Source of the DNA: Candidatus Aminicenantes bacterium
GTDB lineage: Bacteria; Acidobacteriota; Aminicenantia; Aminicenantales; Saccharicenantaceae
Assembly: GCA_963809345.1 (NCBI GenBank)
Contig: CAWEJF010000006.1
Span: forward strand, 21,242 to 85,241
Length of the DNA stretch: 64,000 nt
Direction of reading: 5' to 3'
Of this stretch, positions 57,447 through 64,000 are shown in pieces; within the stretch, counting starts at the first letter, position 1; each line of letters begins with the position of its first letter. The position numbers and the translations under genes are program-made. The notes under the pieces were generated by a model. It worked only from the letters and a program-made list of their open reading frames with translations, was not told the origin of the DNA and made no database searches.

Positions 57447-60322
57447 CTTATCAACAGGGTCAGGATGCCGAAGGCGGGGGCATCGAGCGGACTTGAGACG
57501 CGTGGCCCCTCGGCCCCGGAGAGGCCGCTGAGAAAGACACGGCCGTCCCTGTAGGCTTGGCCGGAGAGGAGGAGCTTCTCCGGCTGGGACGAGGCGTTGA
57601 GGAGCCGCAGGAGCCAGGCCCGGCCGTCGGCGGCGGGTTTGAGCGACATAACGACGAAGGCCGGCGAGTCGACAGCCAGCGGAAACCGGGGCAAGGGGGA
57701 GGCGGGATCGGCTGGGACGGGGACAAGCGGAGTGGCGGCTTCCAAGCCGAGCTTCTTGGCCGTGGCCGTGTCCGAGCCGCGGTGTGGCGTCACAGCATAG
57801 CGCAGGATGACCGGCCCTTCCTGGTCGGCCTTGAAGTTCGTATGCCAGTAGTTGTTCATGACATAGGAGAACAGGTGGGTGGACGGCGCGAGCTCTTGAA
57901 GCCAGACCCGCCGTTCGCCCTGGCGCGGGGTCTCGTCCGTGACGGCGCCGATCTCGACGAGCGGGGCGTCGAGCGATGTCCAGGTCAGGCCGAAGCCCCC
58001 GCCGGAGATATCGACGCTGTCACGCGCGCAGAAGAAATCGCGGCAGGCCCCGGCGATCTGGTCGGTCTCCGGGCGGACGAAGCCCCAGCCGACGTCGACG
58101 CGGGCCGCGCCGCCGGGAAGGGCAAAGGGGAAGGCGATGTGGACGCTCTCCTTTTCCCGGACCTTTTCCTTGTCGATGGTCACGGCGATCTCGAGCCGCG
58201 GCAAACCGTCGACGAGCCGATATTCGCGCACGAGTCCCTTCGCTCCCGGCGCGTCCGAGTCCACGATGAGCGAGGCGACGAGAGGTCCCGGCTCGCCGAT
58301 CCGGATCTTGATGGCTGAGGCCGTCCGGGCGGTCTTCGGATCGACCCCGGGGACGTAGATATAGTGGGCGAGGCCCGATCGCTCAGCCCGGTCCACGAGC
58401 TCGCGGGCTGGGGTCGAGCCGTGCGTCCAGCGAAGGCTCTCCACTGCGCCCGTCTCCGGACCGATGGCCGCGCCGATCGTCGCATTCGATAAGACAGACC
58501 CGGTGACGCCGGCCCCGCCCTTTTTCGGGCCTGGCCCAGCGTCGACGGTGTACCGCTTGGCGCCGAAACCCGGCACCGCCGAGGCGAGGAACGCCAACTC
58601 GCCCGTCCGGAGCCGCTGCGATGGCACGACCGCGCCCCCGCTATCACGGACGAGGTCGCCGGCGGCGCTCATCGCGGCGGGGACGGTGACAAGATCCGTT
58701 CGTTCCCAAGAGCAGGTGTTGACGACATCGATGGCCTTCCCGGCCGCTCTTGAGGCTTCCGTGCGGCCTCTTCCTGCCGCCGCTTCGAAAAGCTCGCGGG
58801 ACAGCCGTTCGGCCCTGTCGGCGAAGGCCTTCTTGTATTCCCATTGGGCCCGCGGTCCCTCGCCGTCCGGGTTCGAGACGCTGTCGGACGCGCCCCAGGT
58901 GTGCTCGCTGAAAAGCACGACCTGGCGCCAGTCCTCCTCGTCCTTCGCCGCCGGGAACCCGTCCCGGCCCAGGATGGACCATAGCGCCTCCGCTTGGACG
59001 AGCCGTTCCGCCGCGGCGCGGCTCATGGCCGTTTCCCTGGCCGTCGAGGCCGCCCCGTCCTCCCAGTAACCGGTGAAGTCGCCGCGGACCTCCGGGATCG
59101 CCGCCCCGTGCCGCCGTTCGAACTCGGCGAACATCTCCGAGGCCGTGGCGATGACGATGCGGGGCGAGACGTACTTCTCGTTCCAGCTCCGGACCGTGTC
59201 GGCGAGGTCCGCGTCCGGCGGCCCGTTGTCGCCCCCGACCGTGTAGCGCACCTGGACCATGGAGTATGGGTAGCTCTTCTCGGCGAGCTCGTCCATGTAC
59301 TCGAAGACGCGGTACGGCGGGGCCTTGACGAGGGAGCCCATGTTGAGGCCGTGGAACCACGAGTAGCCGCGGCCGGCCATCCAGAAGAGGACCCGCTCCC
59401 GGCCCGACGGCGAGCGCCAGTAGAACGGCTTGTCGCCCCAGGCTTTGAGCGCCCAACCGATCCTGTCCCCGCCGTCGAACAGGCTCGGCATGTAATTCGG
59501 CCCGCTCGAGACATACTTGATCCCGGCCAGGGCCAAGGCCGGAACGAGCGACCAGGATTGGCCGGGGATATCGGTCACCATGACGGAGTCCACGGGCACG
59601 CCGGCAAGCCGCCCGAGCCCCCGGGCGAAGTCGGTCAGATGGATGAGCTCCTCGGGATGACAGAGGCCGGTCAGGACGCCGGCCAGCGTCGCCTGGAGCC
59701 CGATCGTTCCCTTGCGCAAGCCATCGATGAGCGCCTCCTTGTCGGCTTCTCCGGCCTGCCGGAAATAGGTCTCGATGGCCCAGGCCTGTTCCGTGTTCCA
59801 TTTGAATCGCGCGCCCTCGGGGTAGGCGGCCGACTTCCCGGCCAGGGCGATCGCTTCCTTGATATATCGCCAGTGGTTCTTTTCGACGACGGGCTGCGGG
59901 TCGGAATAGCCGATGTCGACGTGGGAGTGGGGGAGAAGCCAGATCTCCCGGGGCACGACCGGCTTGACCGTGAGCGCGCCGCCCCGGACGGAGCCATCGT
60001 CGAGAACGACTTCGAAAGTGACAACGCCCTCGCTAGCGACGGCGGGGATGAGGAACTCCAGGGCATTGTACCCGAGCTTCAGTTCGAGCCGCGCTTTTTC
60101 CGTGCCGCAAGTGACGAGCGCCCCCCCGGGAAGGGCGAGGTGGCTGATCTCGACGCGCACGATCTGGAACGCCCGGCCGTCCTTCCGGACCAGGGCCTGT
60201 TCGCTCCGGGCCCGAACGTCGCGGCGGAGGTCGTCGCGGAAGACCATGTACCAATCGTTCGAGCTGGCCTTTTCCCCGATGACCCTGAGCGTGAGGGGCC
60301 GTCCCGGCCGCCTCATCTTCAT
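57407..60322 (-). CDS. GH38-like alpha-mannosidase family protein
   Basis: HSHVDIGY, FKWNTE, MVTDIPG and YWEDG; start overlaps the GH29 stop (ATGA); no signal peptide. Confidence 0.82.
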   Translation of the reverse strand: MKMRRPGRPLTLRVIGEKASSNDWYMVFRDDLRRDVRARSEQALVRKDGRAFQIVRVEISHLALPGGALVTCGTEKARLELKLGYNALEFLIPAVASEGVVTFEVVLDDGSVRGGALTVKPVVPREIWLLPHSHVDIGYSDPQPVVEKNHWRYIKEAIALAGKSAAYPEGARFKWNTEQAWAIETYFRQAGEADKEALIDGLRKGTIGLQATLAGVLTGLCHPEELIHLTDFARGLGRLAGVPVDSVMVTDIPGQSWSLVPALALAGIKYVSSGPNYMPSLFDGGDRIGWALKAWGDKPFYWRSPSGRERVLFWMAGRGYSWFHGLNMGSLVKAPPYRVFEYMDELAEKSYPYSMVQVRYTVGGDNGPPDADLADTVRSWNEKYVSPRIVIATASEMFAEFERRHGAAIPEVRGDFTGYWEDGAASTARETAMSRAAAERLVQAEALWSILGRDGFPAAKDEEDWRQVVLFSEHTWGASDSVSNPDGEGPRAQWEYKKAFADRAERLSRELFEAAAGRGRTEASRAAGKAIDVVNTCSWERTDLVTVPAAMSAAGDLVRDSGGAVVPSQRLRTGELAFLASAVPGFGAKRYTVDAGPGPKKGGAGVTGSVLSNATIGAAIGPETGAVESLRWTHGSTPARELVDRAERSGLAHYIYVPGVDPKTARTASAIKIRIGEPGPLVASLIVDSDAPGAKGLVREYRLVDGLPRLEIAVTIDKEKVREKESVHIAFPFALPGGAARVDVGWGFVRPETDQIAGACRDFFCARDSVDISGGGFGLTWTSLDAPLVEIGAVTDETPRQGERRVWLQELAPSTHLFSYVMNNYWHTNFKADQEGPVILRYAVTPHRGSDTATAKKLGLEAATPLVPVPADPASPLPRFPLAVDSPAFVVMSLKPAADGRAWLLRLLNASSQPEKLLLSGQAYRDGRVFLSGLSGAEGPRVSSPLDAPAFGILTLLIRNGDASIFPSEIK

Positions 60323-61779
60323 CCCGCCACCCTCGCGCCCGCCTTGGCCGCTTTGAGCTTGAAGACCCAGGCGTCCTTGCAGGGAGGCTTCTCGACGGCG
60401 GCGCGCGGCAGGGTCAGCAGCGCGCCCCGGCCGACCTTCTCCCAGCGCACGGGCTCGCGGACCCCGAGCATCCGGACGACGCTCCCGGCCTCGGGCGCGA
60501 TGGACGTCAGCATCAGCTTTGGCGGCGGAGCGGACTCGCCGTCCCCGGCGAGGACGATGGCATAGACCGTGCCGTCCGCGAGGGAAGTGAAGCAGGTCTG
60601 GGCCTCTCTGTAAGGGGCGATCGGCCGCGTGCCGTAGATGGCCTCGCCGTTGACGCGCATCCACTCCCCGATCTCCTCGAGCCGGACGAGCGATTCGGCG
60701 GGCAGCTCTCCCTCGGGGCTGGGCCCGATGTTGAGCAGGAAATTGCCGCCCTTGGAGACGATGTCGACGAGAAGATGAACGAGCCGGCGCGTCGATTTGT
60801 AGGCGTCATTCGGCTTGAACGACCACGAGTTGCCCATGGTCATGCAGGTTTCCCAGGCGTAGGGGAGGGGCTTCTCGGGGACCTCCTGTTCGGGCGTCCG
60901 GTAGTTCTCGTAGCGCCCGGTGACGGTCCGGTCGACGATGAGGATCCCCGGCTGGAGGCGACGGGCCATGGCCGCGATCTTCGGCATGTCGATGTCCATG
61001 TTCTTCGGGTTCTTGACGAAATGCCCGGGAGCGATCTCGGTCATCGGTTGGGGCCGGACCCAGCCGCCGTCGAACCAGAGGACGTCGAGCGGGCCGTACC
61101 CGGAGGCGAGCTCCTCGATCTGCCGGAAGGTGAAATCGCGGAAGCGCTGCCAGCGGTCCGGGTACTTGTCGATGCTGTAGTTGACGTTCCGGTCGGGCGT
61201 CGCCCATTCAGGCGCCCAGAAGTCGGGGTGGTGCCAGTCGGGCTTGGAGAAGTAGGCGCCCACGCCCATCCCCCGGGCCCGGAAAGCGTCGAAAATGGCC
61301 TTGGCGACGTCGGCACGGGGGTCCGTGCGGAACGGCACATCCGGTCCTGTGATGCGGTAATCCGTTTGCCGCGTGTCGAACATGGAGAAACCGTCATGAT
61401 GCTTGGTCGTGAAGACGACGTAGCGCATGCCGGCCGACTTGGCGGCCGCGGCCCACGCCGCGGGATCGAACTTCGTCGGGTTGAAGGTGCGCGGCAGGGC
61501 CTCGTAGGCCTTCTTGTAGGCGCAGTAGTCGTCCATCGTGCGGCGGCACCAGGGCTCATCCTCGGAGCAGAGGGTCCAGGACTCGACGACACCCCACTGA
61601 CTGTAGGGGCCCCAGTGCATCATGAGGCCGAACTTCCAATCCTGCCAGCGGTCGAGTTTGGCCAGGACGAGGGGGTCGGTCTCCCGGTCGGCGTCGGAGA
61701 CCTGGGCGGACGCGGAGATGGATAAGGTCGCCAGGACGATCCCGGTGACGATTGACGAGACGAGGCCGGCGGACTTCAT
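60319..61779 (-). CDS. Secreted GH29 alpha-L-fucosidase
   Basis: KFGLMMHWG, TTKHHDGF, LWFDGGW, WETCMT and SKGGNFLLNIGP. Confidence 0.93.
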   Translation of the reverse strand: MKSAGLVSSIVTGIVLATLSISASAQVSDADRETDPLVLAKLDRWQDWKFGLMMHWGPYSQWGVVESWTLCSEDEPWCRRTMDDYCAYKKAYEALPRTFNPTKFDPAAWAAAAKSAGMRYVVFTTKHHDGFSMFDTRQTDYRITGPDVPFRTDPRADVAKAIFDAFRARGMGVGAYFSKPDWHHPDFWAPEWATPDRNVNYSIDKYPDRWQRFRDFTFRQIEELASGYGPLDVLWFDGGWVRPQPMTEIAPGHFVKNPKNMDIDMPKIAAMARRLQPGILIVDRTVTGRYENYRTPEQEVPEKPLPYAWETCMTMGNSWSFKPNDAYKSTRRLVHLLVDIVSKGGNFLLNIGPSPEGELPAESLVRLEEIGEWMRVNGEAIYGTRPIAPYREAQTCFTSLADGTVYAIVLAGDGESAPPPKLMLTSIAPEAGSVVRMLGVREPVRWEKVGRGALLTLPRAAVEKPPCKDAWVFKLKAAKAGARVAG

Positions 61780-61839
61780 CGGGGCCCTCCTGCGAGGCGG
61801 CTTACCCGGGCATTATAGCAAACCCGGGCCGCGGGGGAT

Positions 61840-63168
61840 TCAGGGAACTTTCTTCCCCGCCGCCTTGGCGGCCTTCGCTTGGTGATCGAAAATGATATTG
61901 GCCATCAGGTCGACGCCGATGGGGATGGCGGCCTCGTCGGCGATGAAGGTCGGGGAGTGGACGGCCGTCGCCTCGAGCTCCGGCGGAACGACGCCCAGGT
62001 TGAACATCACGGCCGGGGCGATCTTGCCGAAATAGCTGAAATCCTCGCCACCCATCTCCGGCTTCTGCTCGACGAGGGCCGCTTTCGAGCCCAGGACGCG
62101 CTCGGCCGTGGCCAGGGCACCGGCGGTCAGGGCCGGGTCGTTGTAGACCGAGGCCGTCCCGATCTTGAAATCCAGGCTAAACGGGGCCCCTGCCGCCTCG
62201 CAGATCCCTGTGACCAGGCGGGTGATCTTCTCCTTAAGCGCCTGACGCTGGGCCTCTCCGTAGCTCCGGGCGGTGGCCTCGAGCTTGGCCGACTGCGGGA
62301 TGATATTACGAGCGCTCCCGGCGTGGAAAGAGCCGACGGTGATGACAGTATCGTTACGGACGCTGATCTCCCGGGAGATCATGACCTGGAGAGCGGTAAC
62401 GATCTCGGCGCCGACGACGACAGGGTCGACACAAAGATTTGGGTTTGCCCCATGGCAGCCCTCGGAATCGATCCTGAGGTCGAAGTCGTCGACATTCGCC
62501 GTCATAAAACCGGAAGTGTAGCCTATCTTGCCGGCCTTAAGGGTGTCGTCGACATGGTAAGCGAAGAAAGCCTCGGGGACGATGTCCCTAAATGCGCCCT
62601 CCGTGATCATCGGGGACGCCCCACCTCCCTCGATTTCCTCGGCGGGCTGAGCGACGAAGACGACCGTGCCGGGAAGTTCCGCCTTGACGGAGGCCAGCAC
62701 GGCGGCGACGCCGAGAAGGACGGTCGTGTGGATATCGTGCCCGCAGGCGTGCATGACCCCCGTCTCGCGGCCTTCGACGACGGTCTTCTCCTTCGAAGCG
62801 AAGGGGAGACCGGTCTCTTCGGTAATGGGCAGGGCGTCCATGTCGCCGCGCATGGCTACAACGGGACCGGGCTTGCCGCCCTTGAGGATGGCGATGACGC
62901 CCGTCTTGGCGTAGCCCGTCCGGACATCGAGGCCGAGCTTGCGGAAGTAGTCGGCGACGATGGCGGACGTCCGCGTCTCCTGGAGGCCGAGCTCGGGGTG
63001 GCAGTGGATGTCCTGCCGGATAGCGATGAGCTCCGGAGCGAGCTTGTCGGTCAGGGCCTTGACCTTCTTCTCGAGCGGTGTTGCGGGATACGCGGCGGCC
63101 CGGACGACGGGCGCGACGGCGAGAACGGTGAGAATCAGGACCGACGCTGCGAGCGGACGTTTCTTCAT
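61840..63168 (-). CDS. Secreted M20 family amidohydrolase
   Basis: HPELG, RGDMDALP, MHACGHD, QPAEE, GGEDFS and HSPTF; signal peptide; GAGGAGG SD. Confidence 0.92.
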   Translation of the reverse strand: MKKRPLAASVLILTVLAVAPVVRAAAYPATPLEKKVKALTDKLAPELIAIRQDIHCHPELGLQETRTSAIVADYFRKLGLDVRTGYAKTGVIAILKGGKPGPVVAMRGDMDALPITEETGLPFASKEKTVVEGRETGVMHACGHDIHTTVLLGVAAVLASVKAELPGTVVFVAQPAEEIEGGGASPMITEGAFRDIVPEAFFAYHVDDTLKAGKIGYTSGFMTANVDDFDLRIDSEGCHGANPNLCVDPVVVGAEIVTALQVMISREISVRNDTVITVGSFHAGSARNIIPQSAKLEATARSYGEAQRQALKEKITRLVTGICEAAGAPFSLDFKIGTASVYNDPALTAGALATAERVLGSKAALVEQKPEMGGEDFSYFGKIAPAVMFNLGVVPPELEATAVHSPTFIADEAAIPIGVDLMANIIFDHQAKAAKAAGKKVP

Positions 63169-63236
63169 GGATTCCTCCTCAAAGATCACGGAGGGCTATG
63201 GTAGCCGAAACGGGGGTGCCCTATCAAACCGTGTTT

Positions 63237-63267
63237 AAAAAAACCCCCATCCCTCAGGGGATGGGGG
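63237..63267 (-). terminator. Intrinsic terminator of the candidate sRNA
   Basis: CCCCCATCCC/GGGATGGGGG stem followed by T7 on the minus strand. Confidence 0.8.
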
Positions 63268-63366
63268 CCCATCGAGGAGGAGAAAAGGTGCAAGGAGGGC
63301 CTGGAGAGGAATCCCCGTATCCGCCCCGTTTTTCGCAATAGCCTTGGATGAGGCCCTCCTTGCGAT
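63237..63366 (-). ncRNA. Candidate ~130-nt small RNA
   Basis: Promoter TTGACC(63401-63396)-17 bp-GAGAAT(63378-63373), 13-bp 5' stem, CU-rich linker, terminator. Confidence 0.5.
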
Positions 63367-63457
63367 AGCCCGATTCTCCCAGGCGAGGGCGGGCCGGTCA
63401 ATCGCCTGAAGCGGGGGTTGCCGAGGTGAATTGCCCTCCTCGGCGAGGTGATGCCGG

Positions 63458-63486
63458 TTGACCCCTTCTTTTTAAATCAGTATGAT
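63458..63486 (+). promoter_or_regulatory. Sigma70 promoter of the GMP synthase B gene
   Basis: TTGACC-17 bp-TATGAT. Confidence 0.65.
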
Positions 63487-63513
63487 GAGGCGAAACAACA
63501 GAGGGAGGCCCCC

Positions 63514-64000
63514 ATGAACGTCAAGAAATTCATCGAAACCCAGATCGAAGAGATCAAGAAGACCGTCGGCTCGGGCAAAGCCATCTCGGCCCTGTCCGGC
63601 GGCGTCGACAGCTCGGCCTGCACCGTCCTCGCTTACAGGGCCCTCGGCCCGCAACTCAAGTCGGTCTTCATCGACCACGGCCTCATGCGCGCCGGCGAGC
63701 CCCAGGAGATCGCCAAGATCTTCGCCGGCCTGGGCATCGCCGTCGACATCGCCGATAAAAAGAAGGAATACTTCGCCGCCCTCAAAGGCAAGGCCGACCC
63801 CGAAGAGAAGCGCAAGGCCTTCCGCTACGCCTTCTATAGCTCTTTCGGCAAAGAGGTCCTCAAGAGCAAGGCCCGCTACCTCATCCAGGGAACGATCGCC
63901 GCCGATATCATCGAGACCCAGAAGGGTCTCAAGACGCAGCACAACATCCTCGAGCAGATCGGCATCGACCCCGAGGAGGGCTTCGGCTTCAAGGTCATCG
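63514..64000 (+). CDS. guaA: GMP synthase ATP-pyrophosphatase (B) subunit, stand-alone; truncated by the window
   Basis: PP-loop SGGVDSS, FIDHGLMR, DPEEKRK, QGTIAAD and KTQHN; no N-terminal glutaminase domain; GGAGG SD. Confidence 0.85.
   Translation, partial: MNVKKFIETQIEEIKKTVGSGKAISALSGGVDSSACTVLAYRALGPQLKSVFIDHGLMRAGEPQEIAKIFAGLGIAVDIADKKKEYFAALKGKADPEEKRKAFRYAFYSSFGKEVLKSKARYLIQGTIAADIIETQKGLKTQHNILEQIGIDPEEGFGFKVI

Follow-up and report, generated by a model that had tools for sequence, protein, structure and literature searches.

Near one end of the window (the whole 64,000-nt stretch of Candidatus Aminicenantes DNA analysed here), a short intergenic segment separates guaA from the gene of an M20 amidohydrolase. 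A first-pass annotation, made from the letters alone, proposed that this segment encodes an undescribed regulatory sRNA exposing an anti-Shine-Dalgarno (anti-SD) tract. Two questions follow: is there an RNA gene at this locus, and what could its product, which we call RNA-1, do?

Architecture of the RNA-1 locus

The minus strand was read over window positions 62400-64000, and all features listed for RNA-1 were located on it at the coordinates below, which also give the flanking promoters and the divergent gene.

63458-63999, plus strand: guaA with its promoter, the divergent neighbour; encodes a stand-alone GMP synthase ATP-pyrophosphatase, ATG at 63514, truncated by the window end
63458-63486, plus strand: guaA promoter, TTGACC-17-TATGAT (promoter scan)
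63404-63455 (about 55 nt), minus strand: block upstream of the sRNA promoter, between two divergent -35 boxes, ..TCACC..AATTCACC..CAACCCCC..GGCGA
63373-63401, minus strand: RNA-1 promoter of sigma-70 type (promoter scan), with -35 TTGACC at 63401-63396, a 17-nt spacer, TGG (TGn) at 63381-63379 and -10 GAGAAT at 63378-63373
near 63366, minus strand: predicted RNA-1 start, about 7 nt past the sigma-70 promoter
63351-63363, minus strand: P1 5' arm GCAAGGAGGGCCT, SD-like, in a perfect 13-bp helix with 63302-63290
63341-63350, minus strand: CAUCCAAGGC segment, nearly invariant and conserved in nearly all copies; a junction strand or small hairpin loop
63303-63327, minus strand: P2 hairpin GGGGcGGA-UACGGGGAU-UCCuCUCC, present in the MFE fold
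63290-63302, minus strand: P1 3' arm AGGCCCTCCTTGC, holding CCCUCCUU, the anti-SD-like sequence common to the family, which the 5' arm masks here
63274-63288, minus strand: exposed CU-rich anti-SD tract CCTTTTCTCCTCCTC / CCUUUUCUCCUCCUC (the CUCCUCCUC tract), unpaired in the MFE fold
63237-63268, minus strand: intrinsic terminator (fold and terminator scan), hairpin 63268-63243 with its 3' arm entering U7/T7 at 63243-63237
63198-63227, minus strand: M20 promoter TTGATA-18-TACCAT, separate from the sRNA (promoter scan)

The promoter scan found three promoter-like sites in the 800-nt region, where 0.1 would be expected in shuffles, and gives guaA and M20 each a promoter of its own. The former gene is identified by TIGR00884 (guaA_Cterm, 340 bits against a cut-off of 338.75) and the latter by TIGR01891, as an M20 amidohydrolase gene on the minus strand with its ATG at 63168. 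The sRNA promoter described in the first-pass annotation, TTGACC-17-GAGAAT with an extended TG, is present at 63401-63373 of the minus strand.

The predicted fold agrees with the structural part of that description. The arms of the proposed 13-bp stem (GCAAGGAGGGCCT, 63363-63351; AGGCCCTCCTTGC, 63302-63290) pair perfectly and enclose 48 nt, and P1 is an intramolecular SD/anti-SD duplex in which AAGGAGGGCC is paired to GGCCCUCCUU. The 22-nt joining region CAUCCAAGGCUAUUGCGAAAAA, which includes CAUCCAAGGC, has a mean unpaired probability of 0.71, and the CU tract at 63288-63274, claimed to be single-stranded, has one of 0.88. The terminator stem, described as 10 bp followed by T7, contains 10 Watson-Crick pairs plus one G.U (11 pairs), a CUGA loop and the T7 at 63243-63237. 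Folded as a whole, the 132-nt transcript reaches -62 kcal/mol (z = -3.2 against shuffles).

On the plus strand, an ORF at 63285-63341 (VQGGPGEESPYPPRFSQ) behind GAGGAGG is antisense to the P1 3' arm and P2. This 17-aa ORF, opened by GTG, had been pointed out before; it does exist, but it is no conserved coding frame, and relatives carry indels of 1-3 nt. A small protein was rejected for this ORF and for a 71-aa ORF on the minus strand alike, as neither is conserved and both meet non-triplet indels in relatives.

Conservation and covariation across Aminicenantales

BLAST finds the 181-nt RNA-1 unit once in its own genome and also in 20 further genomes of the genus, with identities of 79-88%. 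Two covariance models were built, R1 from 20 genus copies (P1 of 12 bp, P2 of 8 bp) and R2 from 49 diverse copies. Among 246 Aminicenantales genomes, R1 matches 136 and R2 matches 187, mostly with one strong match per genome; the R2 matches include 96 of 121 high-quality genomes and 54 of 68 genera. When 401 genomes were sampled across the phylum, all 11 genomes matched belonged to Aminicenantales, and the RNA-1 model gave no match outside the order.

The alignment of 49 copies carries a clear record of compensatory change. Paired cells amount to 95.9%, against 58-65% in slid-alignment controls, and double-sided changes are found in 11 of the 20 pairs (seven of the 12 modelled in P1, four of the eight in P2), a level that none of 500 shuffles attained. 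The outer P1 pairs covary, with GC, AU and CG types, and the central 8 bp of P1 (GGAGGGCC/GGCCCUCC) are nearly invariant, without covariation. In some families P2 is replaced by a longer hairpin with a GNRA loop cap. A further hairpin, GCCU-CAUCCA-AGGC, and a possible UCGCAA:UUGCGA helix were set aside, the evidence for them being thin and alignment-dependent.

The features exceed what chance would produce, the unit recurs in relatives with compensatory changes, and we regard RNA-1 as very probably a real, functional non-coding RNA gene. The first-pass annotation had named an Rfam search and conservation with covariation in relatives as checks. Both speak for its proposal of an undescribed, independently transcribed sRNA gene: no Rfam family covers the RNA-1 core, and RNA-1 recurs with a conserved promoter and a covarying structure, independently of M20. 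As judged from sequence, the family is new and specific to the order Aminicenantales, and it is of a kind already known, that of bacterial regulatory sRNAs with anti-SD character.

The Rfam search (Rfam 15, E <= 1) covered window positions 60000-64000 and 13 diverse homologous loci and placed no family over the RNA-1 core in any of them. Its only match was to RF02278, the Betaproteobacteria toxic sRNA (63285-63237, 29.1 bits, E 0.005, gathering score 50). The likeness consists of a CUCCUC tract with a terminator hairpin and U run behind it, whereas the internal hairpin of the model is skipped in RNA-1 and the taxon is another. This identity was rejected: the score is below the gathering score, model positions 10-28 are replaced by 3 nt, and the RNA-1 core is left uncovered.

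Within the window's own genus, RNA-1 is kept in about 23-28 of 42 species and lost from about 14-19. The gene has been cleanly deleted from many of these species (L114, for example); in L115 only the P1 3' arm, GGCCCTCCTTGCACCC, is left, and L110 carries a guaA 99% identical to that of the window, yet has no RNA-1. RNA-1 is therefore dispensable in many species of the genus, which counts against a housekeeping RNA. Identity with 6S or SRP RNA was ruled out by size, fold and dispensability: 6S RNA is a rod of about 180 nt with a central bubble, found in essentially all species, whereas the family described here is about 90-130 nt long, forms a multi-helix junction and is deleted in species of the genus. 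The 6S model RF00013 has no match in 25 Aminicenantales genomes, the window's own included, so that the order either lacks a 6S RNA or has one that has diverged strongly.

Promoter, strand and 3' end in the family

Of 98 distinct RNA-1 copies, 92 have a sigma-70 promoter (TTGnnn, 16-18 nt, nAnnnT) directly upstream, and in 84 of these the spacing is 17 nt; shuffled upstream sequences score equally well in 6% of cases. The -10 hexamers differ among copies (GAGAAT, GATATT, GACGAT and others) in the manner of genuine -10 boxes. On the minus strand, GNRA tetraloops (GAAA, GCGA, GAGA) cap the variable hairpins, and a wobble test counts 28 G.U against 19 A.C, which mildly favours the minus strand and is weak taken alone. 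The promoter and the GNRA loops, both on the minus strand, fix the strand of RNA-1. They also disfavour a function on the opposite strand, as a leader or riboswitch of guaA, and this candidate was rejected.

The 3' end is far more variable. A stable hairpin follows the CU tract in all 17 genus copies examined by per-sequence folding, with at least seven different stem sequences, and across the family a hairpin with a T-rich tail is found in only 11 of 98 copies; in 30 of the 98, a T-rich run comes directly after P1. No copy has a better terminator than that of the window. The complete promoter-to-terminator unit previously described thus holds for the window copy, but a strong terminator is no feature of the family. 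The same division applies to the exposed CU tract as a seed region: it is accessible here, but CTCCTC or CCTCCT occurs in the tail of only 29 of the 98 distinct copies, all of them in the window's own family, and sister genera have UCACCUCCUC in the tail at the position of the CU tract. Both the strong terminator and the CUCCUCCUC tract are confined to the family or genus.

The block upstream of the promoter can be aligned across families as TCACCTTTAGAGGTGA..AAATCATC..AATCCACCC..AAAGGCGATTGAC, and includes TCACC-N6-GGTGA. Within it, (T/C)CACC stands 11 nt upstream of GG(C/T)GATTGAC, an arrangement also found in the promoter of a second RNA, RNA-2, described below. The block at 63404-63455 is probably the binding region of a transcription factor common to RNA-1 and RNA-2.

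Neighbouring genes and possible roles in cis

The position of RNA-1 next to M20 raises the possibility that it is a leader, attenuator or riboswitch of that gene in cis. The two share their orientation, with RNA-1 about 70 nt upstream of M20 in the window and in most genomes of families f1 and f2; in many relatives the U tails of the hairpins are weak, which makes read-through possible, and the CU tract complements the SD of M20, GAGGAGGA. The window copy ends, however, in a strong U7 terminator, and M20 lies downstream of RNA-1 only in f1 and f2, the next gene being a different or a convergent one elsewhere. A promoter also lies between RNA-1 and M20. The first-pass annotation had given M20 this promoter of its own (TTGATA-18-TACCAT, 63227-63198), and it is conserved in relatives as TTTGAA-17-TACGAT, including species from which RNA-1 has been deleted. 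We consider control of M20 in cis extremely unlikely. The varied, often convergent downstream genes and this intervening promoter agree with the earlier view that an attenuator was the less likely reading, and a riboswitch or cis leader was rejected in general, as no downstream gene is consistent.

The association with guaA is wider. RNA-1 is located divergently upstream of guaA in 64 of 80 guaA loci, across families, and is found without an adjoining guaA in about a quarter of the sampled loci.

Two features of the flanking DNA may be recorded here. At about 20 loci outside f1 (L069, L070, L073, L082, L085 and some 15 others, in families f6 and f7), a conserved module lies 50-90 nt downstream of RNA-1 and reads ACAATATATTG, about 16 nt, ATACGATATATAG, 7 nt, TTGTCAAG and a T run. 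This module, which resembles a bidirectional promoter, persists also at loci whose next gene is convergent. The forward half is the counterpart of the window's M20 promoter (63198-63227), and the reverse half (an A-tract, TTGACA, 17 nt, TATTTT) is directed back at RNA-1 and guaA; the reverse half is absent from the window and its genus. The second feature is an inverted repeat of variable length, GGGGTCAAACCTA...TAGGTTTGACCCC, between guaA and RNA-1 in L002, L110, L112, L116, L117, L123 and L136. The window has a single arm of it at about 63456-63466, and the guaA -35 box TTGACC lies inside one arm.

RNA-1 might then act on guaA, as the cis-antisense or transcription-interference partner of a long guaA leader that would start, in other families, from the convergent downstream promoter. 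The frequent guaA neighbour fits this idea, as does the reverse promoter facing RNA-1 in the loci outside f1. Several observations argue the other way: that promoter is missing from the window's genus, guaA has a proximal promoter of its own, a good share of RNA-1 loci are not beside guaA, and RNA-2 resides in an unrelated context, next to genes for an ABC ATPase and an agmatinase-like protein. An action on guaA is accordingly very unlikely in our estimate.

A sibling RNA with a 16S-like tail

RNA-2 was found through a weak match of the RNA-1 model elsewhere in the same genome (C13:222751-222835; 25.5 bits, E 4.5e-4).

G000:C13:222692-222835 (locus L190, own genome, outside the window), plus strand: RNA-2, an sRNA gene of about 92 nt

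It has the layout of a textbook sRNA gene, with a promoter (GGCGATTGACC-N14-TGn-GATTCT), a GAAA-capped hairpin in the 5' domain, GCCAAGGUUGUGAAAA, and a terminator hairpin followed by a U run. Within the genus, RNA-2 is conserved in 38 of 42 genomes; 30 of 36 other genomes of the genus, among them species without RNA-1, carry it at 78-92% identity. A dedicated model places it in 117 of the 246 Aminicenantales genomes, at loci distinct from those of RNA-1. Its neighbours are the ABC ATPase and agmatinase-like genes, not guaA.

The two RNAs have much in common. Both are preceded by the extended promoter GG(C/T)GATTGAC-N14-TGn-GAnnnT (GGCGATTGACC-N14-TGn-GAnnnT) with YCACC and further motifs upstream, and both contain the CAUCCAAGGC motif (also present in distant RNA-2 copies), a UUGYGAAAA linker and the P2 hairpin GGGAG.AGGA-GGAU-UCCU.CUCCC. 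RNA-2 is probably co-regulated with RNA-1. The motif GGCGATTGAC, taken as the mark of a regulon, is found at nine places in the genome, close to the chance expectation, and clearly marks only the two sRNAs.

The two RNAs differ in how the sequence after P2 is held. In RNA-2 of distant families, P2 is followed by the 3' tail CCCUCCUUUC(A), which has no SD-type arm to pair with as in RNA-1; in four copies that were folded, its unpaired probability is 0.34-0.69. In nine of 16 copies the tail reads CCUCCUUUC, a sequence identical to the 3' end of the window genome's own 16S rRNA, GGAUCACCUCCUUUCA. The P1 3' arm of RNA-1, CCCUCCUU, is homologous to this tail and is paired with an extra 5' arm, AAGGAGGG (RAGGAGGGCC). 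By this pairing, RNA-1 would be comparable to an RNA-2 that carries its own SD to mask the anti-SD. Family f1 has gained another tract farther downstream, which is unmasked and reads CUCCUCCUC here and UCACCUCCUC in sister genera.

These relations change the footing of the anti-SD idea put forward for the window copy. It gains from a sibling whose tail, in other families, is the 16S 3'-end sequence CCUCCUUUC(A), but that tail is only partly free. The idea keeps support while its basis shifts, because the family-wide anti-SD is the masked P1 3' arm and the CU tract is a lineage-specific addition.

A candidate trans-acting anti-Shine-Dalgarno sRNA

Our preferred reading, to which we assign a probability of roughly 45%, is that RNA-1 is a trans-acting anti-SD sRNA, possibly assisted by Hfq. 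From the features above we infer its expression, its action in trans, its anti-SD pairing and its dependence on Hfq. RNA-1 (about 130 nt here) would be transcribed independently from its sigma-70 promoter, P1 would fold and enclose the CAUCCAAGGC segment and the second hairpin, and in the window's genus the RNA would extend into the single-stranded CU tract and then a Rho-independent terminator. The CU-rich, 16S-3'-end-like sequences would base-pair in trans with target mRNAs at their ribosome-binding sites and block 30S binding there, probably with the help of Hfq. The acting sequence in the window's genus would be the exposed tract at 63288-63274, and the masked P1 3' arm would act only once P1 had been opened. 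RNA-1 and RNA-2 would form a co-regulated pair that shows 16S-3'-end-like sequences to mRNA SD regions. The anti-SD mechanism, as one part of this reading, is put forward tentatively, with somewhat more doubt than confidence.

A candidate partner for such an RNA is encoded in most of these genomes. Hfq (PF17209) is matched in 39 of 41 relatives, in 31 of them above the cut-off, and in the window genome with 30.3 bits against a cut-off of 27. A scan for RNA-1 targets as perfect complements of 10 nt or more found at most 12-mers, none beyond chance.

The stability of P1 opens another reading. CCCUCCUU is held in a very stable helix of 12-13 bp, and for this reason it may never be free in RNA-1. 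Since the P1 core and CAUCCAAGGC hardly vary, RNA-1 might instead bind a protein or the ribosome, or be unmasked by a ligand; the invariant core could reflect recognition of the duplex by a protein or the ribosome. The folded P1 duplex and CAUCCAAGGC might then be bound as a unit by a protein or the 30S platform, making RNA-1 a decoy or sponge that does not pair with mRNA. The almost complete invariance of the central 8 bp and CAUCCAAGGC across the order, next to a covarying outer P1, is consistent with this, as are a helix too stable to be opened easily and a complement scan without a target above chance. However, CsrA, the classic partner of sponge RNAs, was not found: PF02599 is above its cut-off in none of the 41 relatives, and tblastn of the window genome detected none. 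Furthermore, RNA-2 has no 5' SD arm, and most of its distant copies keep the anti-SD at a 3' tail that is only partly paired, which points to a function as a single strand. We regard recognition of the folded duplex as unlikely.

Unmasking could also be the work of a small molecule. The junction core (P1, variable hairpin and P2) might bind a metabolite, perhaps a guanine nucleotide, and release the anti-SD arm, so that RNA-1 would be a ligand-sensing trans-acting sRNA. A multi-helix junction with invariant joining nucleotides and GNRA-capped, variable peripheral hairpins would suit such a role, as would the linkage to guaA. In one clade a changed P1 apex pair is accompanied by a possibly matching change in CAUCCAAGGC, which could reflect an alternative pairing and is alignment-dependent. 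Yet gene adjacency is the sole clue to a ligand, the alternative pairing comes from one small clade and a choice of alignment, and RNA-2 has the same core without a masked arm. Ligand sensing of this kind appears very improbable indeed.

A broader variant of mimicry would have RNA-1 and RNA-2 act as mimics of the 16S 3' end that titrate SDs at large, with RNA-1 auto-inhibited, locked by its SD and released when its core senses a metabolite, a protein or temperature. Although rather improbable, this variant would, if true, make RNA-1 a switchable, riboswitch-like trans-acting sRNA that is co-regulated with an unmasked sibling.

Relation to known regulatory RNAs

The nearest parallels to the preferred reading, a trans-acting anti-SD sRNA, are found in other phyla. 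The csRNAs of Streptococcus (CcnA-E) are sibling sRNAs that depend on CiaR. They too are small (about 90-150 nt), have promoters with a common, unusual upstream element, and carry SD-complementary sequences beside stem-loops and a terminator; they differ in belonging to another phylum and in having no homology in sequence or structure to the RNAs described here, of which one masks its anti-SD in an SD:anti-SD helix. RsaE/RoxS of Firmicutes is a conserved trans-acting sRNA with short UCCC loop motifs. It would be comparable in that its unpaired C/U-rich motifs pair with G-rich ribosome-binding sites and in that it has its own promoter and, like the window copy, a terminator, but it is not homologous, and the Aminicenantales RNAs copy the 16S 3' end, CCUCCUUUC, instead.

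Among the Hfq-dependent sRNAs of enterobacteria, several are divergent from a related gene (GcvB/gcvA, OxyS/oxyR, MicF/ompC). RNA-1 resembles them as a stand-alone gene divergent from a conserved neighbour, with a terminator and U tail in the window copy and an hfq gene in the genome; its neighbour guaA is biosynthetic, however, and not a regulator. A CsrA sponge of the CsrB/RsmZ type was rejected, CsrA being absent and RNA-1 having only one hairpin with a GGAU loop.

Implications for Aminicenantes

Aminicenantes are known mainly from metagenome-assembled genomes (MAGs), and a literature search found no paper on their non-coding RNAs. RNA-1 and RNA-2 constitute an order-wide pair of putative sRNA genes with a common promoter element and covarying structure, which makes them annotatable by covariance models in hundreds of MAGs. 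The repeated clean loss of RNA-1 within one genus provides a natural experiment on its role. Mimicry of the 16S 3' end, held outside an SD-type helix in one sibling and masked in the other, suggests a simple control of translation initiation, and the pair would offer a first handle on post-transcriptional regulation in Aminicenantes.
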